From a virus (taxonomy: Duplodnaviria > Heunggongvirae > Uroviricota > Caudoviricetes), in the IMG/VR virus record IMGVR_UViG_2541047728_000019: a stretch of DNA of 39,715 nt. One strand, 5' to 3'. A model generated the notes under the pieces. It searched no databases. It was given only the letters and a program-made list of their open reading frames with translations, and had not been told where the DNA came from. This document shows positions 3,386 to 35,810 of this stretch, piece after piece. The position numbers and the translations under genes are program-made. Each line of letters starts with the position of its first letter. The stretch's first letter is position 1.

Positions 3386-6300
3386 TTAACGTTCTTCCAG
3401 AGACTGAATCCGCTCTTTTATCTTATCCATTTCTCTGCGCTGCCATGCTGCCTCGATATAGAATAAGAGATCAGGTCTGACCCCCCATCTAGATCCTGCT
3501 GGCGTTATTTCAACGCGCTCAATGATGTCTTCCATTACCATCACTGGATTATCATCCTCATCAACAATGATGCTCCCGTCATTATCAGTCAGCGGCATTT
3601 CCCTTTGGCCAGTAATGACGTCATCATATACTGCGGGATAATCGTCATAGCAAAGAAAGGCATAGCGGCATGTTGTGCTTTCTTCTTCCATGAGTCCGTG
3701 AGAAATAAGAACATCACGAAGTTGCTGCGCGATTACACCATGATGTATCCTCGCCCCTTCTTCCCCCTTTATAGCGACAGCGTTCAGCCATTTATAAGCG
3801 ATATACCTGACGTCACCCCAGGCATCCAGCAATGCTTCGTCAGGAGAGACCGGCTCTGTCTTTAATGTTCCGTCACTGGTAACCACAGGATTGGAGCCAA
3901 GATAAACTGTCGAGAACCTGTTTCCCGGACCACCAAGAGCATTTACATTATCAAGATAAGGTTTAACATCTCCGTTCTCAAAAAGATGTTCGAGTGCGTT
4001 ATATACCGCGCGACGTGGAGTACTGCTTCTGGAACCATGCAACGTTATCATTGCACCATCTGCTGAAGACGTTGTTTCACCGCCGCTAACGATTAATCTC
4101 TGAGCGGTAACATCATCAGACGGTACTTTCTTCGCAATAATGGCGTAATTACCCTCAAGTTTGACTTCCGCGCGAACTTGTCCTGATGTACCTGCATGGA
4201 CAGTCAGTGACTGGACGGCAACATCATCTGTGAAATCAACGGGTACAGGAACCGTCCTCACGCCTGACGTCGACATAAAAGTAGGAAGCGTTCTGTTAGG
4301 AGTGGCTCCGTAGACAAAATCCCTTGAAACAAATTCTTCCTGTTTAATTTTCACCCTGAAACAATACAAATCAGCCGGGTGACCATCGTGAACATAAGGA
4401 TATTTTCTGTTGTTATCCCCTATGCTCCATGGGTTTAGAAAGTCTTCCCCACCGAAAATGTAGTACAGCCAGTTGTCTTTGATACAAACTGAACCAACAC
4501 CAACCGCAGAGTTAACTATTCCGCCCTGATAAATCTGATCAGTAACATTAACCCACTCTACATTATCCAGACTCCACTCATTGACGTTAACTCTGGTCAT
4601 AAATGTTCTTGGATAATTTCCTGCATAACGGTTATCAGGTTCTCCTCCTTCCCACTCACCAAATGCGCGCTCACTGCCAAAAATAATCAGCTCATCGCCA
4701 ACTTTGGCAAAAGGAAGGTTTGAGTGATGAACATTATTTGGGAAGCGAAGAGAATTCCATGATGTACCTAAATCAGAGCTTCTGTGCAATGAACTACCGG
4801 GTTGAGTACTTAATGTCCCCCTGGTCGTCAGATACAGAATGCCATCATAATATTTTACACATGGCTCAGATGCATTCGCCTCATATTCTACAGGTATGCG
4901 TCTGCGAACAAAGCTACCAGGAGAACCGAAAGCATCAGAGAAATAGAGTATCCCAAGCTCGCGTGGACCAATATCACCATTATGGTAGCCAACAGCAAAA
5001 CTGTTATCGCTAATCGTCGCAAAACTGTGAATCTCAGTAACAGGAGTGCTTCCGTCAACAAAAGAAGGAATAGTTCCAAGACTGGTTTTTCTCCATGGTG
5101 ACGAGTGAAATGATGTGCCAAAACTCCAGTATCTACCCTCGTTATTCTGATCCACATCCTGGGTATTTTTCGTCGTAACTGTAAAGGTATTTTTATCAAT
5201 AACAGTAGTCACCGTCATATTCCCGGTAACACCTGTAACACCAGAGTTTGAGAAGTTGACAAAATCACCAGCAAATAATCCGTGATCAGTAATGCGAATA
5301 TAAGCGACTTGCTGATTTGCTGCTTTCGTTATACCACCATAAACGCGAAGGCTGCGACTCATTGGGCGATCCCACAACTCTGCAACCTGCAGTTTATTTC
5401 CGCTCACGGTCCGCGTCTCAATTACAGCAAAAAGGCGATTTCTGACAACCCCCATACTCATGCAGTGATAGTTAACTGTGGGATAGTTTTCATGTAAATC
5501 TGTAAGCCATTCCGGCGTTGTCCAGGTCTTCCCGTCATCTCCTGAGCGAACCCATGCAACATGGAGGTTATTTACACCATGGCGGTCTCCAGCCATAAAA
5601 GGCGCATAGATGACATTGTCATATACAAACGTTTTATCCTGCGTCCAGGCGTTGTACCACGGTGTATCTGTAATTTTAAATAACTCTCCCTGGATAAAAT
5701 CTTCAGAAGCATAAAAAAGAGGTTGGCCCGGTATTCTCTCAAATAAAAAACGAGCATTTTTAAATCGACTGACATCCGGAAGAGTTGATACTTTAAAAGT
5801 AAGCCCTAATCCGTCAATTTTATAACCTGGAGATGAGGCTTCAAGGCACGCGCTTATTGCAGTGGAATCGTCATTTATACCATCACCAACAGCTCCAAAA
5901 TCTTTGGGGCTAATAGCATCACGCATTTTATCCTGGAACGTTCGGTACACAGCCCCAGAACCATACTGAATAAACCAACCAAAACCACCAACAACCCCGG
6001 AGATTGCAGCATCGACATAATTACGCATTGAGCGATTATTTACAGCGTCCTGCTCAAATGATGGATCTGCAAGGTTAGAAATTTTGTTTTGCTTTGCATC
6101 GTAATATTTTGCAAGCAAAGATGGTTTCATCAATGCACGTCTGAACCACCCAAAACATTGCTGGATCAGCATCGTCAGATAGTCAAAGGCATCTTCATGC
6201 ACCTCGGGGAAAAATTTTCCCTGATTACGAAGATCAGTCTCCTGCACCACATCAAGCACACGATCTATCGTAATTCGCCATCCAGCAGCAAGCGGCGACG

Positions 6301-6505
6301 GAAGAACAACAGAACCGCCACTATAAGTGCCCGCCCCAGTTACCGTATAACCGGTATCCAGTACTAGTTCTGTTACGTTACCGTTAAGGTCAGACACCTG
6401 AACAACCAGGTCGGATTTTTTGAAAATACGGAAGGTATACGGAAATGATGTCGTAACGCCGTTACCAGTGTATTCGTTGTGGTCAACTTCGGTTGAGACC
6501 GTCAT
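3386..6505 (-). CDS. Tailspike: N-terminal particle-binding domain, central beta-helix-type depolymerase region, C-terminal intramolecular chaperone (peptidase S74-like) domain
   Basis: 1039 aa; DFGAVGDGINDDSTAI motif typical of pectate-lyase-like beta-helix enzymes; C-terminal DEALLDAWG...YKWLNAVAIKGEEGARIHHGVIAQQ matches self-cleaving chaperone domains; GGAGA SD. Confidence 0.85.
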   Translation of the reverse strand: MTVSTEVDHNEYTGNGVTTSFPYTFRIFKKSDLVVQVSDLNGNVTELVLDTGYTVTGAGTYSGGSVVLPSPLAAGWRITIDRVLDVVQETDLRNQGKFFPEVHEDAFDYLTMLIQQCFGWFRRALMKPSLLAKYYDAKQNKISNLADPSFEQDAVNNRSMRNYVDAAISGVVGGFGWFIQYGSGAVYRTFQDKMRDAISPKDFGAVGDGINDDSTAISACLEASSPGYKIDGLGLTFKVSTLPDVSRFKNARFLFERIPGQPLFYASEDFIQGELFKITDTPWYNAWTQDKTFVYDNVIYAPFMAGDRHGVNNLHVAWVRSGDDGKTWTTPEWLTDLHENYPTVNYHCMSMGVVRNRLFAVIETRTVSGNKLQVAELWDRPMSRSLRVYGGITKAANQQVAYIRITDHGLFAGDFVNFSNSGVTGVTGNMTVTTVIDKNTFTVTTKNTQDVDQNNEGRYWSFGTSFHSSPWRKTSLGTIPSFVDGSTPVTEIHSFATISDNSFAVGYHNGDIGPRELGILYFSDAFGSPGSFVRRRIPVEYEANASEPCVKYYDGILYLTTRGTLSTQPGSSLHRSSDLGTSWNSLRFPNNVHHSNLPFAKVGDELIIFGSERAFGEWEGGEPDNRYAGNYPRTFMTRVNVNEWSLDNVEWVNVTDQIYQGGIVNSAVGVGSVCIKDNWLYYIFGGEDFLNPWSIGDNNRKYPYVHDGHPADLYCFRVKIKQEEFVSRDFVYGATPNRTLPTFMSTSGVRTVPVPVDFTDDVAVQSLTVHAGTSGQVRAEVKLEGNYAIIAKKVPSDDVTAQRLIVSGGETTSSADGAMITLHGSRSSTPRRAVYNALEHLFENGDVKPYLDNVNALGGPGNRFSTVYLGSNPVVTSDGTLKTEPVSPDEALLDAWGDVRYIAYKWLNAVAIKGEEGARIHHGVIAQQLRDVLISHGLMEEESTTCRYAFLCYDDYPAVYDDVITGQREMPLTDNDGSIIVDEDDNPVMVMEDIIERVEITPAGSRWGVRPDLLFYIEAAWQRREMDKIKERIQSLEER

Positions 6506-6700: not shown

Positions 6701-6958
6701 ATGCAGCAGTATCACTATCCACTGGAAGACGGATTTACCGAAAGGATTCACACGCCGGGAGGCGTCAGGTCACTGGTGGAGGGATCGCACTTGATGAAAT
6801 TACTCCGGGATCTCGATAAGGATGGATTTAATGTCGATGGCCCACTTGCCGAACTGACTGCACTGATTAACTACGTCACCAGCTCACAGATGTCTATGCA
6901 GGATCTGCAAACACATCTCGACTATTGTGCCGAACAATTACGAAAACAAACCCGGTAA
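6701..6958 (+). CDS. Small antirepressor-like protein: stand-alone copy of the Ant C-terminal module
   Basis: 85 aa; clear similarity (IHTPGGV..LMKLL..DG.NV.G..AELT...Y...DLQTH.DY) to the C-termini of both Ant proteins; GGAG SD 8 nt upstream; LexA box in promoter. Confidence 0.55.
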   Translation: MQQYHYPLEDGFTERIHTPGGVRSLVEGSHLMKLLRDLDKDGFNVDGPLAELTALINYVTSSQMSMQDLQTHLDYCAEQLRKQTR

Positions 6959-6964
6959 ATTTAA

Positions 6965-6982
6965 AGGCCGCAAGAGCGGCCT
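6965..6982. terminator. Bidirectional terminator hairpin aggccgc-aaga-gcggcct
   Basis: 7-bp GC stem between convergent genes; near-identical hairpin at 9612-9629. Confidence 0.5.
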
Positions 6983-7709
6983 ATCGTTTCGCTTTGTGCT
7001 CGTCCCAGCACGTTTTGCACCATGCCATTAAGCCGTCCGCATTTTGATTATTAGGGTAAAAGCTGGTCCGTTTTCTGCGGACATTACAAATTGGGCACCA
7101 CTTCATATGGCGTGTATTCTTTGGGCCATCGAGACACCTTGCACACCACTTAGTCAATCCATCTGGATTTTTTGACGATTTCCGGAATTTGTCATATGGA
7201 AGGTTTATTCTGCATCGCAAACACTGCTTGCGGCCACTTGAAACTCTGTTAGCTGATTCTTCTTTTGGCGGCGATACAGAAGGTATTCTTGCTGGCTCTG
7301 ATACTGCCTGAGGTGCTTTTTTAGATGACTGAGACGATATGTCATCACCAGGGAATCTTCCATGATATGCCGGACGCGTTGACACTCCAGGTGGAAGCTC
7401 AGCTGTAAACGGCTTTGGCTGAATCAGTTGCCTCTCTTTTGCTAACTCCTGCTGTTTATAATATGTCTGGATTACCGCGCTATCATAAGCAGGAGGTACG
7501 GAAATATTAGGCGCATTATCTCCCGTTTTTTGAAACTGAGTGGAGGTGTGTTCTATCACCTGTGTACGATTAATCGTTATCTCCCCATCTTCAGTCTTTA
7601 TCGTTTTGTTATGATTAACGACCGTACGATCAGAGATCTTAGTCTTGTTCTGGTTGATAACGTAAATAATCACCGCAACCACACCAACAACTACCCAGAA
7701 AACTTCCAT
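6981..7709 (-). CDS. Membrane-anchored protein with two tandem CxxC-x22-CxxC zinc-ribbon repeats
   Basis: N-terminal TM helix, Pro/Ser-rich linker, repeats CLRC...DGLTKWCARC and CPIC...DGLMAWCKTC; strong GAGGAAAGG SD; operator palindrome about 20 bp upstream. Confidence 0.6.
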   Translation of the reverse strand: MEVFWVVVGVVAVIIYVINQNKTKISDRTVVNHNKTIKTEDGEITINRTQVIEHTSTQFQKTGDNAPNISVPPAYDSAVIQTYYKQQELAKERQLIQPKPFTAELPPGVSTRPAYHGRFPGDDISSQSSKKAPQAVSEPARIPSVSPPKEESANRVSSGRKQCLRCRINLPYDKFRKSSKNPDGLTKWCARCLDGPKNTRHMKWCPICNVRRKRTSFYPNNQNADGLMAWCKTCWDEHKAKR

Positions 7710-7729
7710 TGCCTTTCCTCACAATAACA

Positions 7730-7744
7730 TTACCTTAAAGGTAA
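7730..7744. promoter_or_regulatory. Operator-like palindrome TTACC-TTAAA-GGTAA
   Basis: Perfect dyad immediately upstream of the 7709 gene. Confidence 0.55.
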
Positions 7745-7822
7745 TATCTTGCTTTCAGGTGATCAAGCGTTAAACGCAATCAACCAAATACGGTTGATTT
7801 TAATATTTCTTCGCGTTTATCA

Positions 7823-7837
7823 TTACCTTTGCGGTAA
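7823..7837. promoter_or_regulatory. Operator-like palindrome TTACC-TTTGC-GGTAA overlapping a candidate -10
   Basis: Preceded by TTGATT-N18-TATCAT; faces the KilA-N antirepressor gene. Confidence 0.55.
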
Positions 7838-8104
7838 ATTTACATCGCACTCCTCTTGTGCCATAGTAATCGGGCACTGGCAAAATCCAGTGCCGGGATT
7901 GGTCTCCCGGATTACTACAGAGGCACATATGCCGCATAAGCGGTTTTTTTATGTGTAAAGCGCACCTATTCTATGGTGGGCTGTGTGGGGGCACCGAAAG
8001 GTGCGCCGGGTTCCTTTGTAGCCGGTAAGACCAACTCTGCACAGTTCACCACCATCTGATTGGTCTCAGCGGTGGTGATTAACCTAACTACAAAGGTGAT
8101 CGCC

Positions 8105-8797
8105 ATGAATACCAAACCTTCCATCTTTTCCTTTGAGTCATCCTGCCAGATCCGTATGTTCATGATTGACGGAGAACCTTGGTTTGTCACCAAAGATGTG
8201 TGCAATGCTTTGAATATTGATGTTACACAAGCGAGAAAACTTGATAAAAAAGGCTGGAACAAAAAGGGGCTGTATTCAATACAGACCCCTGGTGGAATAC
8301 AAGAACTATCCATCGTTTCAGAATCAGGTCTCTACATCCTTATTCTGCGTTGCAAAGAGGCAATGACTGAGGGAACGAGAGCATTCAGATTTCTTGAATG
8401 GGTTACAGGTGAGGTTCTTCCTCAGATCCGCCGCACCGGAAGTTACATTAAAAACTCGCTCCCGCAGGAAGAACGCATAAAGATGGTTGCCGACCAGGTA
8501 GCCAACGCCACAGCATCAGCAGTGATGCAGGCAATGAAGATAGAGAACAAAACCTACAGTGCCCCACTGAAGCCCGGCTACCGCAGCCTGATTCATTCTC
8601 CGTCTGGTGTTCTCGGCCTGACGGAGCACTCACTGCTGATGAATCTGTTGAACCAGTTACAGGAAGACGGGCACGACGTATCGGGCGCGGCGGCGGAGCT
8701 GACCACCATGTTCTGCTACATCGTCGGTGTGAGCAAATGCCTGCGTGATATCCAGACTCACGCGGAGTACATCAACGACAAGGCAGGGTTCTTCTGA
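8105..8797 (+). CDS. Antirepressor, Bro-N/KilA-N N-terminal domain plus shared Ant C-terminal module
   Basis: Bro-N signature (FVTKDVCNAL...SESGLYILILR...FLEWVTGEVLPQIRRTGSY); start MNTKPS at 8105; C-terminal 77 aa near-identical to the other Ant. Confidence 0.8.
   Translation: MNTKPSIFSFESSCQIRMFMIDGEPWFVTKDVCNALNIDVTQARKLDKKGWNKKGLYSIQTPGGIQELSIVSESGLYILILRCKEAMTEGTRAFRFLEWVTGEVLPQIRRTGSYIKNSLPQEERIKMVADQVANATASAVMQAMKIENKTYSAPLKPGYRSLIHSPSGVLGLTEHSLLMNLLNQLQEDGHDVSGAAAELTTMFCYIVGVSKCLRDIQTHAEYINDKAGFF
8564..8797 (+). repeat. Left arm of a 234-bp inverted repeat (about 95 percent identical to 9689-9922)
   Basis: Codon-by-codon comparison by eye: 11 differences, 10 synonymous; encodes the shared Ant C-terminal module. 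Confidence 0.8.
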
Positions 8798-9012: not shown

Positions 9013-9552
9013 GTGTTAAGTGAAGAAATGCAATTTGCCATGGCTGTGGCTCAAATCGTAAGTGCAGTCGCGGTTTCGCTTGGCTTGTTCATAGCTATCG
9101 CTACTATTATTTATAATGTAAATACAGCGAGAAAAGTACACACTTCAGTATTCCTTGGTGAAAGCAGGTTTGATGTAGATTATAAGAAAGGCCTATCTAC
9201 TATGCGCCGCATTCACGAGTCGAACAAATCATTCCGCTCTTATATGTATCCAAGCAATGGGCAGGCTGATCTTACGGATGAAGAAAAGATAGAGAAGAGA
9301 GAAATAATTTACTGTCTAGGTTTCTACGAACGCATGGCTGTGAGCGTGAAGCGGAAAACTTATGATGAGACCATGATTAAGGAAGTATTTTACAGCTCCG
9401 TTGTAAATAACTATCAGATTGCGCTACCTCTTATACAAGCTATTAGAGAAAAAGAAAACATAAACACATATTTTAAAGAATATGAATGGTTGGCCACACG
9501 ATGGAAGGATTGTCCATTGAAGGATAAATCCCCGTGGTACAAGTTTTGGTAA
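9013..9552 (+). CDS. Membrane-anchored protein, unknown function (candidate superinfection-exclusion or abortive-infection factor)
   Basis: GTG start with GGAG SD; N-terminal TM helix then about 150-aa soluble domain; AT-rich relative to neighbours. Confidence 0.6.
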   Translation: MLSEEMQFAMAVAQIVSAVAVSLGLFIAIATIIYNVNTARKVHTSVFLGESRFDVDYKKGLSTMRRIHESNKSFRSYMYPSNGQADLTDEEKIEKREIIYCLGFYERMAVSVKRKTYDETMIKEVFYSSVVNNYQIALPLIQAIREKENINTYFKEYEWLATRWKDCPLKDKSPWYKFW

Positions 9553-9688: not shown

Positions 9689-9922
9689 TCAGAAGAACCC
9701 TGCCTTGTCGTTGATGTATTCCGCGTGCGTCTGGATATCACGCAGGCATTTGCTCACACCAACGATGTAGCAGAACATGGTGGTCAGCTCCGCCGCCGCG
9801 CCCGATACATCGTGCCCGTCTTCCTGTAACTGGTTCAGCAGATTCATCAGCAGTGAGTTCTCCGTCAGGCCGAGAACACCCGACGGCGAATGAATCAGAC
9901 TGCGGTAGCCTGGCTTCAATGG
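9689..9922 (-). repeat. Right arm of the 234-bp inverted repeat
   Basis: Reverse complement aligns to 8564-8797 with about 95 percent identity. Confidence 0.8.
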
Positions 9923-10627
9923 ATAACCATAACATTTTGTCTGTGTTTTAATTGCCTCACGAAGCGCATCTAACATCTTGACTGCCACTTCATCATTCTC
10001 TGATGCAGATCCAGCAGGGAGATACTCCCCTTCAAGCGGAACCCGAGCAACAAGAGACAACGCTTCGGCAAATTGATCTTCACCAATTTCTTTGTACGAA
10101 CAGCCAAAATGAGATTTCAGTGACGACCACATGGTGATCATCGCCTTAGCCTGTTTTTCTTTTGGCAGAGACTGACCGCGACTCATGACGAGTTGTTTAA
10201 TGGCTTCCTGCTGTTCAGTTGTTATTTTACCCGGCAACGCCTTTTTAGCTTTGCGTGGGTTAACCACATGGCCTTTAGTCCAGTACTCGTAGAGCACATC
10301 GTCACACTCTTCCTGATACTGGATTACCTTGTCGCGGATTTCAGGGCGGACTTTGTTAGGGCTGATGCTGTTCAACCAAGCTGCCAATTTTCGTAAAGCC
10401 ATACAAATCATGGCTTGCACCCCACCGGCAGAAGGTATGGTGATTTCCACCATACCCTTCGAGAAGCGTTGAGAAATCTTCTTATGTTGAGATTTCCAGT
10501 CTAGCCCCATTCCCTCAACGATAGGTTTCATTGGGGTATACGGTTCGCCGTTGTGATTGACAACATAAAGCTCTGCGCCGTGGAATGGCACGTTGATAGT
10601 AGATACTGCTGTTGCTATACTCGTCAT
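9689..10627 (-). CDS. ant: Antirepressor, AntA-type N-terminal domain plus shared Ant C-terminal module
   Basis: N-terminal PFHGAELYVVNHNGEPYTPMKPIVEGMGLDW resembles AntA; downstream of Arc-like gene as in P22 immI. Confidence 0.8.
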   Translation of the reverse strand: MTSIATAVSTINVPFHGAELYVVNHNGEPYTPMKPIVEGMGLDWKSQHKKISQRFSKGMVEITIPSAGGVQAMICMALRKLAAWLNSISPNKVRPEIRDKVIQYQEECDDVLYEYWTKGHVVNPRKAKKALPGKITTEQQEAIKQLVMSRGQSLPKEKQAKAMITMWSSLKSHFGCSYKEIGEDQFAEALSLVARVPLEGEYLPAGSASENDEVAVKMLDALREAIKTQTKCYGYPLKPGYRSLIHSPSGVLGLTENSLLMNLLNQLQEDGHDVSGAAAELTTMFCYIVGVSKCLRDIQTHAEYINDKAGFF

Positions 10628-10676
10628 GTCGTTAATTCCTATACGTAGTTTTACGATACTGAAGCCCTGACGGTCT

Positions 10677-10690
10677 GGCCACCGTGGGGC
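10677..10690. promoter_or_regulatory. GC-rich dyad GGCCACCGTGGGGC between arc-like and ant
   Basis: Near-palindrome; second copy at 10882-10896. Confidence 0.35.
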
Positions 10691-10699
10691 TTCGCTGTT

Positions 10700-10896: not shown

Positions 10897-10987
10897 AAAA
10901 TAATTGTCACACCGTGCGTCATTGATGTCAAGCACACGGTGAGGCATACTTCAATCATTGCAAGTAACTCAATATTTGGTGAAGAAC

Positions 10988-11419
10988 ATGAGCAGAGAAG
11001 ATCCACAACTAAGGATCAGACTTCCCGTCGAAGTAAAAGAAAAAATAGAAATTTCTGCAAAAGCCAATAAGCGATCAATGAACGCTGAAATAGTACAACG
11101 TCTTGACACCAGCTTTCTGAAAGATATTCATGAAGATGACGTAATTTCTGCTTATGAAGCAAAAATCATTGCAAACAATGCACGACATGAAATATCAAAT
11201 ATTATTTTCAAAAGAACCTTTAATGAAATTAATAAGAAAATAACACTTGGACATACAAGTTTTTATATAAACCTTAATGACCTTGAACTGGAATCACTTG
11301 CAGATAATGATTACCAGATCATCTTTGAAAAAACATTTAATAAGCTCAATGAACTAGGTTACATCATCTGTGAAAACTCATGGGATGCAGATGGTTTTGG
11401 AATTGAAATACCTGAATAG
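10988..11419 (+). CDS. mnt: Mnt-like ribbon-helix-helix repressor with about 95-aa C-terminal extension
   Basis: MSREDPQLRIRLPVEVKEKIEISAKANKRSMNAEIVQRL closely parallels the P22 Mnt N-terminus; divergent from arc-ant; very AT-rich. Confidence 0.7.
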   Translation: MSREDPQLRIRLPVEVKEKIEISAKANKRSMNAEIVQRLDTSFLKDIHEDDVISAYEAKIIANNARHEISNIIFKRTFNEINKKITLGHTSFYINLNDLELESLADNDYQIIFEKTFNKLNELGYIICENSWDADGFGIEIPE

Positions 11420-26805: not shown

Positions 26806-26820
26806 TTACCTTTCAGGTAA
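26806..26820. promoter_or_regulatory. Operator-like palindrome TTACC-TTTCA-GGTAA
   Basis: Perfect dyad; TTGACA hexamer at 26784-26789. Confidence 0.55.
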
Positions 26821-27142: not shown

Positions 27143-27219
27143 GTGGCATTAGCTCAGTTGGACAGAGCAACCGCCTTCTAAGCGGTTGGTCGCAGGTTCG
27201 AATCCTGCATGCCACGCCA
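27143..27219 (+). tRNA. tRNA-Arg (anticodon UCU, reads AGA)
   Basis: Cloverleaf folded by hand: acceptor GTGGCAT/ATGCCAC, D-arm GCTC..GAGC, anticodon stem ACCGC/GCGGT with loop CTTCTAA, T-arm GCAGG-TTCGAATC-CCTGC, 3' CCA encoded. Confidence 0.85.
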
Positions 27220-35225: not shown

Positions 35226-35810
35226 ATGAAAAGTATCCAGGACGTCCGCAGGCAAAATCTCAACGACTTGATCGACCGTGAATTCAATGGTGTTCAGACG
35301 CGGATGGCTGAAAAACTTGGAACTCAGGCAAATCTGGTAAACCGCTGGGCTCTTGGCAAGAAGGTTATCGGCGACCAGGTTGCACGAAAAATTGAAGCTG
35401 CCGCCAATAAACCCCGTAACTGGCTTGATATCGATCGCTCGCTTTCTCAGGAAGGTTTTCAGCCTGTCGGCCCAAGCGACATTGGCCAGCTGGCGGCTCA
35501 CAACCTGGAACGCTGGATGAGCGAAAGCCGCGACCTTTCAACACAGGGAAAACTTCACCGCGCATCCGGCGTAGCCCAGGTGACAATCAGCCGCCTATTA
35601 AACAATGAGGTCAGCGTTTCCATTTCCACCCTGGAGAATGTTGCATCCGCATTCGGGCGTCACGGCTATGAATTACTGATTCACCCGCACGACCCTGCGA
35701 CCATCAACTATGATCGCTCGCGCTACGCATTGTTACCCGAAACCGAGAAAGCAAAGATCGAAAGTTACATTGAATTTGTCATCAACCAGAACGAAAAAAA
35801 CAAACAATAA
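35226..35810 (+). CDS. Repressor-like DNA-binding protein with two HTH-like segments and no S24 peptidase domain
   Basis: 194 aa; HTH-like QTRMAEKLGTQANLVNRWALGKK and a second in the C-half; no Ser/Lys autocleavage motifs seen. Confidence 0.6.
   Translation: MKSIQDVRRQNLNDLIDREFNGVQTRMAEKLGTQANLVNRWALGKKVIGDQVARKIEAAANKPRNWLDIDRSLSQEGFQPVGPSDIGQLAAHNLERWMSESRDLSTQGKLHRASGVAQVTISRLLNNEVSVSISTLENVASAFGRHGYELLIHPHDPATINYDRSRYALLPETEKAKIESYIEFVINQNEKNKQ

Follow-up and report, generated by a model that had tools for sequence, protein, structure and literature searches.

Zinc-ribbon modules and accessory genes in prophage immunity regions are both already known kinds of element. The locus downstream of the repressor gene is a known hotspot of abortive-infection genes, which share the highly active repressor promoter in lysogeny; of the systems encoded there, Rex combines a sensor in the cytoplasm with a protein in the membrane, and BstA includes a DNA-binding domain (PMC8585504). 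P22 SieA, in turn, is a small inner-membrane accessory protein of a temperate podophage (PMC10883804). Here, we compare with these systems a gene for a 242-residue protein located on the minus strand (6981..7709) of a 39,715-nucleotide stretch of caudoviricete DNA (IMG/VR record IMGVR_UViG_2541047728_000019; hereafter, the window). The gene belongs to a family that, we infer, always lies in phage immunity regions, namely, behind cI in lambdoid phages and in an immI-like variable region in epsilon15-like phages. Because of this placement, protection of the lysogen or the infected cell against other phages appears to be the most likely role, and we assign a probability of roughly 0.4 to what we consider the best reading, that the product serves in exclusion or defence and acts on nucleic acid on the cytoplasmic side of the inner membrane.

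In no fewer than 7 lambdoid lineages, which diverge deeply, the gene is adjacent to the repressor gene, on the same strand and with gaps of 15-34 nt, and the upstream gene encodes a repressor of the Cro/CI-type helix-turn-helix (HTH) and/or Peptidase_S24 kind. The homologue in Aeromonas phage phiARM81mr begins 18 nt past the CI repressor gene; the remaining lineages are P0060, P0099, P0057 and three further ones from viral contigs, which were found with a degenerate DNA pattern for DGLTKWC. These distant family members, which are 26-40% identical to one another and to the window protein, share the locus of lambda RexAB and Salmonella BTP1 BstA. Neither RexAB nor BstA shows sequence similarity to the window protein, which is one small polypeptide, and the window copy itself is not repressor-adjacent, given that it lies ~27 kb from the repressor gene (35226-35810), in an immI-like region with its own putative operator-controlled promoter.

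Within epsilon15-like prophages, the gene shifts its place and orientation in the variable region. At 8 of 13 diverse loci, it is convergent with, and abuts, the last large virion-protein gene (a homologue of phiV10 p20, 75% identical in Serratia), which parallels the position of P22 sieA between the ejection-protein genes and the immI/tailspike region. SieA differs from the window protein in having three transmembrane (TM) segments vs. one, in its size of ~162 aa and in the absence of a zinc ribbon or a large cytoplasmic domain; it blocks DNA injection and is expressed from the prophage, and it has no sequence similarity and no PHROG or Pfam link to the window protein. A conserved co-oriented partner gene was not found at the 13 diverse loci, where the only recurrent neighbours are the large virion-protein, Bro-N and gp19-like genes. 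Homologues also lie outside epsilon15-like and lambdoid phages (L006 in Buttiauxella and L007 from a metagenome): one belongs to a small integrated element that has resolvases and a CI-like repressor, and another neighbours the baseplate and tail-fibre genes of a myovirus-like prophage. Neither of the two loci has a TTACC-type operator.

The initial annotation of the DNA treated 6981-7744 as one feature. The open reading frame (ORF) itself, which is intact and has an ATG start, spans 6981-7709, and the palindrome included in that feature (7730-7744) lies outside of it. The features of the gene and its surroundings, as we delimit them, are the following.

6981..7709 (stop codon 6981-6983), minus strand: coding sequence of the membrane-anchored tandem zinc-ribbon protein, PHROG 6762 (ORF listing, PHROG match, homologues, selection pattern).
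7650..7703, minus strand, residues 3-20 (2-20 in the AlphaFold2 (AF2) model): single N-terminal TM helix, predicted N-out/C-in (AF2 predicted local distance difference test (pLDDT) 90-94; hydropathy and the positive-inside rule over 52 homologues).
7533..7646, minus strand, residues 22-59: conserved long two-stranded beta-hairpin predicted directly below the membrane (AF2 strands 22-39 and 42-59, pLDDT 78-94 as 10-residue block means).
7428..7481, minus strand, residues 77-94: predicted alpha-helix (AF2 pLDDT 73-86).
7239..7427, minus strand, residues 95-157: disordered, length-variable linker rich in Pro, Ser, Gln and Ala (pLDDT ~50-65; indel-rich, unconserved).
7122..7238, minus strand, residues 158-196: zinc ribbon 1 (C163, C166, C189, C192).
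6984..7121, minus strand, residues 197-242: zinc ribbon 2 (C205, C208, C231, C234) and basic C-terminal helix.
7716..7720, minus strand: Shine-Dalgarno (SD) sequence GAGGA, 6 nt ahead of the ATG (read from the sequence).
7730..7744, no strand: operator palindrome TTACCTTAAAGGTAA, one of the 15 copies of the phage-wide TTACC-N5-GGTAA site.
7738..7766, minus strand: putative sigma-70 promoter, with -35 TTGATC at 7761-7766, a 17-nt spacer and -10 TACCTT at 7738-7743 inside the operator (recurrent layout).
6965..6982: terminator common to the gene and the convergent gp19-like ORF, a G+C-rich hairpin (AGGCCGC-TCTT-GCGGCCT) with a T-rich tail; it overlaps the stop codon of the gene.
6959..7832: limits of the accessory cassette, absent in phiV10 and present in TL-2011b (blastn breakpoints).

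The AF2 model, which was built with a 52-sequence alignment (mean pLDDT 79.9), shows the predicted product as a bitopic inner-membrane protein that consists of a periplasmic N-terminus of 1-2 residues, the TM helix, a 38-residue hairpin, a helix, a linker of ~60 residues and a cytoplasmic tandem Cys4 module. The single N-terminal TM helix proposed originally is borne out by the hydrophobic helix at residues 3-20 and by the absence of any second hydrophobic segment in the protein or across the 52 family members. In these 52 proteins, there are ~0 Lys or Arg residues in the N-terminal flank compared to a mean of 3.6 in the 15 residues after the TM helix, and the net charge of the last 85 residues, i.e., the zinc-ribbon module, ranges from +8 to +18 (+15 in the window protein). 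Because of the positive-inside rule, and because Cys4 zinc sites require a reducing cytoplasm, the bulk of the protein, zinc ribbons included, is predicted to be cytoplasmic, so that the location of the ribbons originally suggested on the basis of charge is supported by the Lys/Arg statistics and by the basic module.

The description of the ribbons as two tandem CxxC-x22-CxxC repeats with an NxDGLxxWCxxC consensus is accurate. The CxxC motifs are located at 163-166, 189-192, 205-208 and 231-234, with exactly 22 residues between the pairs in both repeats, and the motif N-x-D-G-L-x-x-W-C-x-x-C ends both units. All 8 Cys are invariant in 29 homologues, and also in 52 homologues down to ~20% identity. 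The repeats, however, are related rather than near-identical, with 12 of 36 positions (33%) the same, and the module covers ~80 aa (161-242), not 60: AF2 places two zinc ribbons, each followed by a short helix, in residues 160-242 (pLDDT ~88-96). The linker reported between the ribbons and the membrane does exist (Pro, Ser, Gln and Ala account for 47% of residues 101-157), but it does not join the TM helix directly because the hairpin (22-59) and the helix (77-94) intervene. The hairpin, with strands of 18 residues each, was of low confidence in an earlier AF2 model made with 29 sequences and became confident with the 52-sequence alignment; N21, T39 and G42 are invariant in the 29-homologue alignment (A1). 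An isolated 38-residue hairpin is unlikely to stand alone, and it is therefore a candidate oligomerisation or contact element that probably mediates oligomerisation. The hairpin had been overlooked, as had the Stc1/nuclease-accessory kinship of the ribbons, the moron-like cassette and the recurrent repressor-adjacent position.

The protein matches PHROG 6762, a family of unknown function, over its full length (residues 1-242 on profile positions 1-242, E = 4.6e-149). A first search identified 33 homologues in Escherichia, Superficieibacter, Enterobacter, Citrobacter, Salmonella, Serratia, Providencia, Pectobacterium and Buttiauxella, and a search with the family profile against 1.84 billion cluster representatives yielded 1755 matches at E <= 1e-3; among the 150 top-scoring representatives, ~30 match across almost the entire profile. 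In the alignment, the first 60 residues are conserved, and the middle is variable in length and unconserved. Among complete E. coli genomes, 129 of 5426 (~2.4%) carry the gene at full length, always annotated 'hypothetical protein', with a 100% identical copy in the avian pathogenic E. coli (APEC) O2:K1:H7 strain E18055. Prophages with the gene were also found in Salmonella, Enterobacter, Citrobacter, Serratia, Providencia, Yersinia, Pectobacterium and Aeromonas, annotated 'hypothetical' throughout. A search of plasmids gave no copy, and the gene was found only in phages and prophages; the only isolated phages with a family member are TL-2011b, Yersinia YeP4/5/6 and phiARM81mr. In YeP5, the annotated start of the homologue (L092 1900-2634) is 29 residues ahead of the conserved MEIFW start, and a (KT)9 run right after the TM helix implies a hexanucleotide repeat in the DNA.

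These data bear on the possibility that the ORF is spurious or is decaying and functionless. The TL-2011b region could be taken to point that way, being annotated only as a misc_feature 'similar to hypothetical protein', but the ORF is intact there, and the breadth of the profile matches and the invariance of the Cys residues argue against this possibility, as do the confident AF2 domains. Furthermore, among 39 distinct alleles, variable codons of the zinc ribbons comprised 44 with synonymous changes only vs. 16 with an amino-acid change, compared to 11 synonymous vs. 77 non-synonymous in the linker. This predominance of synonymous changes in the ribbons fits a functional protein, with purifying selection on that region. 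Judged by this conservation, the spurious-ORF explanation is effectively refuted, and its probability is close to nil. The initial annotation had made its interpretation depend on conservation in related prophages, where the outcome is twofold: the gene is absent in the closest relatives, phiV10 and vB_EcoP_ZX5, and the family shows strong conservation in many prophages. The gene is thus best regarded as accessory, not spurious.

The window can be assigned to the epsilon15/phiV10-like (Uetakevirus-type) prophages, and vB_EcoP_ZX5 is a published relative that resembles the window phage (PMC9782041). The adjacent tailspike gene (3386-6505, minus strand; 1039 aa) encodes a full endosialidase domain set and a Peptidase_S74 chaperone; because of these endosialidase domains, we take the prophage to be K1-specific. 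In TL-2011b, the whole region is present and continuous at 94.5% identity, with the 242-aa ORF intact, whereas phiV10 and ~12 other relatives match the flanks alone. Homology to phiV10 (blastn) ends at 6958, the stop of the gp19-like ORF, and restarts at 7833, which delimits an 874-bp cassette (6959-7832) that holds the terminator, the gene, the SD and the putative promoter region. A moron is reportedly defined, by Juhala and colleagues in 2000, as an independent transcription unit inserted between genes of related phages; the cassette conforms to this description in being present or absent between conserved flanks and in having its own terminator and an inferred promoter. This comparison of related phage sequences shows the gene to be a real accessory gene in a moron-like cassette.

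Upstream of the gene and divergent from it, Rfam identifies, at gathering score, the isrK Hfq-binding small RNA (7874-7950, plus strand; 74.7 bits) and the C4 antisense RNA (7969-8056, plus strand; 78.6 bits), which are directly followed by a Bro-N gene (8060-8797, plus strand). Because isrK, C4 and Bro-N, as well as P22-type antirepressor, sar and Arc-like genes, lie alongside, the cassette can be placed inside an immI-like immunity/antirepressor region.

The initial annotation had noted an operator palindrome about 20 bp upstream of the gene. This palindrome, TTACCTTAAAGGTAA (7730-7744; extended form ATTACC...GGTAAT at 7729-7745), has the ATG 20 nt downstream and proved to be one copy of a phage-wide site, and sites of the same type precede homologues in other epsilon15-like lineages. 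Allowing <=1 mismatch, we identified 15 copies of TTACC-N5-GGTAA in the window (at 6378, 6610, 7730, 7823, 8869, 26806, 29951, 29969, 32807, 32869, 34771, 35108, 35156, 35868 and 35930) compared to 0.65 expected, and none of 100 shuffles reached 15. The copies are nearly all intergenic, and phiV10 has 14 of them. Pairs of operators flank the HTH repressor gene (35226-35810 in the window; p40 in phiV10), and single operators are located ahead of the terminase, head, tail-fibre, lysis, integrase and replication units, so that the 15-site set resembles a P1 C1-type regulon of dispersed operators. In this phage group, repressor overexpression led to no free phage and lowered holin transcription by 99.97%, and the Bro-N protein is an antirepressor (PMC9782041). 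A literature search for the operator motif found nothing relevant. The epsilon15 genome paper reportedly describes this motif; the counts given here are our own.

The -10-like TACCTT at the studied gene is part of the operator, with TTGATC 17 nt upstream of it, and at several operator copies this half-site doubles as a -10 hexamer at 17 nt from a good -35. Such an arrangement is seen again at site 26806 of the window (TTGACA-17-TACCTT) and ahead of the homologues of Serratia (TTGAAC-17-TACCTT), of the Enterobacter/Citrobacter/Salmonella type (TTGACC-17-TACCTT) and of Providencia (TTGAAT-17-TAACCT, with the variant operator TAACC-N5-GGTTA); in lineage L065, the operator is present and a good -35 is absent. 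A consensus promoter scanner did not call the promoter of the gene, the -10 of which matches 3 of 6 positions only, and the sigma-70 promoter at 7738..7766 is accordingly listed as putative. Through the operator overlapping the putative -10, expression of the window copy would be wired to the phage repressor, which predicts repression of this copy in a stable lysogen. The SD, which had been called strong, is present, and its 4-5 nt match makes it good but not exceptional. In the Enterobacter/Citrobacter/Salmonella-type copies (L066-L071), a further conserved palindrome, TGTGACATGTCACA, is located just upstream of the -35, ~60-75 nt ahead of the homologue ATG, and is a possible binding site of another regulator; it is absent at the window copy.

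Expression on infection or induction, as this operator-controlled promoter predicts, would suit two functions other than defence. The protein could be a membrane tether for the phage's own DNA, i.e., an early protein that attaches replicating or entering phage DNA and so organises replication or packaging in the manner of phi29 p16.7, which is integral to the membrane and brings phi29 DNA to it (PMC4974454). The TM anchor, stalk and basic nucleic-acid-type domain fit such a role, and p16.7 has the same layout of N-terminal anchor, stalk and C-terminal DNA-binding domain, although the resemblance is architectural only: p16.7 belongs to a lytic phage of a Gram-positive host, its DNA-binding fold is unrelated and its function is in replication, whereas the window gene is linked to an immunity region. 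It is also dispensable, being absent in phiV10, ZX5 and ~12 others among the closest relatives, and the lambdoid lineages described above place it in the repressor operon, which is transcribed in lysogens, and not with replication genes. We therefore regard the own-DNA tether as quite unlikely. Alternatively, an expression burst on derepression, together with a polybasic DNA-type domain on a membrane anchor, could indicate a host-takeover or toxic early function, in which the tethered DNA binder pulls the nucleoid to the membrane or blocks division or replication, similarly to T4 Ndd or Kil. Co-transcription with the repressor in the lambdoid lineages, however, implies tolerated, continuous expression in lysogeny, and none of the 129 E. 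coli genomes with the gene has it in a disrupted form, which makes such a function very improbable.

The relationships of the zinc ribbons are informative on the molecular activity. The initial annotation did not recognise the architecture, in agreement with the libraries searched: neither NCBIfam nor PADLOC-DB 2.0 contains a matching family (0 PADLOC families at E <= 1), and in Pfam, the only match is PF12898 (Stc1) at 21.5 bits (E = 3.5e-4), under the gathering threshold of 24.8 bits. The Stc1 match at E < 0.01 was obtained for 25 of 29 homologues (best 1.2e-4), sub-threshold as well, whereas relatives with 4-10 ribbon copies pass the threshold (31.9-60.9 bits). The top Foldseek match in the PDB is the Stc1 tandem zinc finger 2LUY (probability 0.85, E = 5.6e-3), with low TM-scores for the full-length model, so that the fold evidence is weak; a sequence profile search of the PDB gave only a non-significant match to PacI (E = 0.18). 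With PHROG profiles, the ribbons match parts of the 'endonuclease VII', 'HNH endonuclease', 'Lar-like' and 'DNA primase' families, and the endonuclease VII and HNH matches involve only residues 142-242 of the protein and, on the profile side, only the zinc-ribbon parts. Foldseek against viral models (BFVD) yielded 33 matches at E < 1e-3; those that carry a name are for the most part HNH endonucleases, endonuclease VII and zinc-finger proteins from giant viruses and actinophages.

Each ribbon thus resembles, in profile and fold, the accessory ribbons of HNH and endonuclease VII enzymes and the Cys4 sites of Hpy99I and PacI; the matches are limited to the ribbons, which are joined to an enzyme in those proteins but to a membrane anchor in the window protein. 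Phage HNH nickases often have zinc-ribbon domains added on (PMC3592412). The profile and structure matches show a module of the Stc1-like zinc-ribbon class that elsewhere is fused to HNH/endonuclease VII nucleases and helicases in viruses and bacteria, and the ribbon can be described as a widely reused module. Among the relatives are four large proteins (P0048, P0081, P0103 and P0113) in which 5-10 ribbon copies are joined with helicase domains (ResIII/DEAD or AAA_11/AAA_12) and HEAT repeats, and a stand-alone tandem-ribbon protein of 85 aa (P0119).

We considered and rejected two enzymatic or counter-defence assignments. A nuclease of the degenerate HNH kind is ruled out because the catalytic beta-beta-alpha-Me residues are absent: there is no His between either CxxC pair and no Pfam HNH or Endonuclease_7 match at E <= 10. 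Lar-like anti-restriction was rejected because a single ribbon matches (positions 7-47 of 130 in phrog_5558 vs. residues 201-241), with no Pfam Lar_restr_allev match at E <= 10.

Given the domain associations and the conserved positive charge, we favour nucleic acid as the ligand of the ribbons, with protein being less likely. The opposite view would be that of a protein-sequestering adaptor, a LIM/Stc1-like module that would retain some protein of the host or the phage at the membrane in the way of ZipA or a membrane anti-sigma factor, with a division, transcription, defence or switch component as the candidate target. The best solved-structure Foldseek match, Stc1, is protein-binding; the combination of an anchor, a long flexible linker and a globular head is ZipA-like; and the gene sits among the anti-repressor modules isrK/C4/Bro-N and Ant/sar. 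Stc1 itself shares the eight Cys in two CxxC...CxxC units, but is a soluble adaptor between RNAi and chromatin modification in fission yeast, without a membrane anchor, and the same partners are not expected. Moreover, the nearest relatives in sequence and structure are overwhelmingly ribbons fused to nucleases and helicases, the family-wide positive charge is typical of nucleic-acid binders, and no partner gene is conserved alongside. An adaptor is accordingly unlikely in our estimate, albeit worth keeping in mind.

Under the preferred reading of exclusion or defence through action on nucleic acid, the ribbons would be kept by the anchor, hairpin and linker on a leash of several nanometres under the membrane. 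From there, the protein might capture or stall entering DNA (exclusion), or it might sense entering DNA and perturb the membrane via clustered TM helices, which would amount to Rex-like abortive infection in one polypeptide. In a more specific and more tentative version, which we rate as rather doubtful, the family would be a new class of prophage defence across lambdoid and epsilon15-like phages of Gammaproteobacteria, in which leashed DNA-binding ribbons of a single polypeptide patrol the inner-membrane face and either capture the injected DNA end or, through hairpin-mediated clustering of TM helices, depolarise the membrane.

Several considerations weigh against an exclusion or defence role. 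The lack of a PADLOC match excludes membership of a known defence family, and binding to nucleic acid is suggested by domain associations and charge alone, whereas Stc1, the one solved structure with a sequence-level link, is a protein-interaction module. The exclusion proteins SieA, Imm, Sp, Sie2009, Ltp and Cor act from the membrane or the periplasm and are not known to work through a cytoplasmic domain. For SieA, action from the membrane or periplasm is documented (PMC10883804). The operator at the window copy predicts repression in the lysogen, which is the opposite of the lysogenic expression expected for the repressor-adjacent homologues; the promoter at issue, with its weak -10 TACCTT, is drawn from the recurrent layout alone. 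Position-based arguments are weak where a locus gathers cargo of many kinds. With respect to the timing of expression, both predicted wirings of the family, operator-controlled and repressor-adjacent, tie the gene to the lysis-lysogeny switch, and the epsilon15-type copy may be silent, leaky or active chiefly upon infection or induction, similarly to imm and sp, the exclusion genes of T4.

The combination of a TM anchor, a conserved hairpin, a leash, a cytoplasmic tandem ribbon and repressor linkage was not described in the libraries and literature searched. The placement of the gene in immunity regions, often in the repressor operon, makes it a strong candidate for a new exclusion or abortive-infection function, and such functions shape phage host range, prophage competition and the outcome of phage therapy, including that with K1-specific phages. 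The gene is carried by prophages associated with APEC O2:K1 and with enterohaemorrhagic E. coli. If the reading is correct, the mechanism would be unusual, with a nucleic-acid-type module displayed inside the cell, unlike exclusion proteins that act from the membrane or periplasm; the protein is small and encoded by a single gene, so that the proposal is readily testable. In addition, the 15-site operator doubling as a -10, along with isrK/C4/Bro-N beside sar/Ant/Arc, makes this phage group a compact model for P1-like dispersed-operator regulation.

The variable region around the cassette contains further elements. The isrK/C4/Bro-N genes form a P1-immI-like or Gifsy-1 IsrK-like antirepressor module, the promoter region of which underlies the operator at 7823-7837. 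A second antirepressor module, of the P22 type, comprises a P22_AR_N antirepressor (9689-10627, minus strand), the sar antisense RNA (10629-10696, plus strand; 44.8 bits, just over the threshold) and an Arc-like ribbon-helix-helix gene (10958-11419, plus strand), so that the phage carries two different antirepressor systems side by side. The ORF at 9013-9552 (plus strand), another accessory gene in the same region, matches DUF4760 (E = 1.6e-30), and its equivalent in TL-2011b is annotated as a YafO-family toxin. Elsewhere in the window, a tRNA-Arg gene (anticodon TCT; 27143-27219, plus strand) is preceded by the operator-overlapped promoter at 26806.

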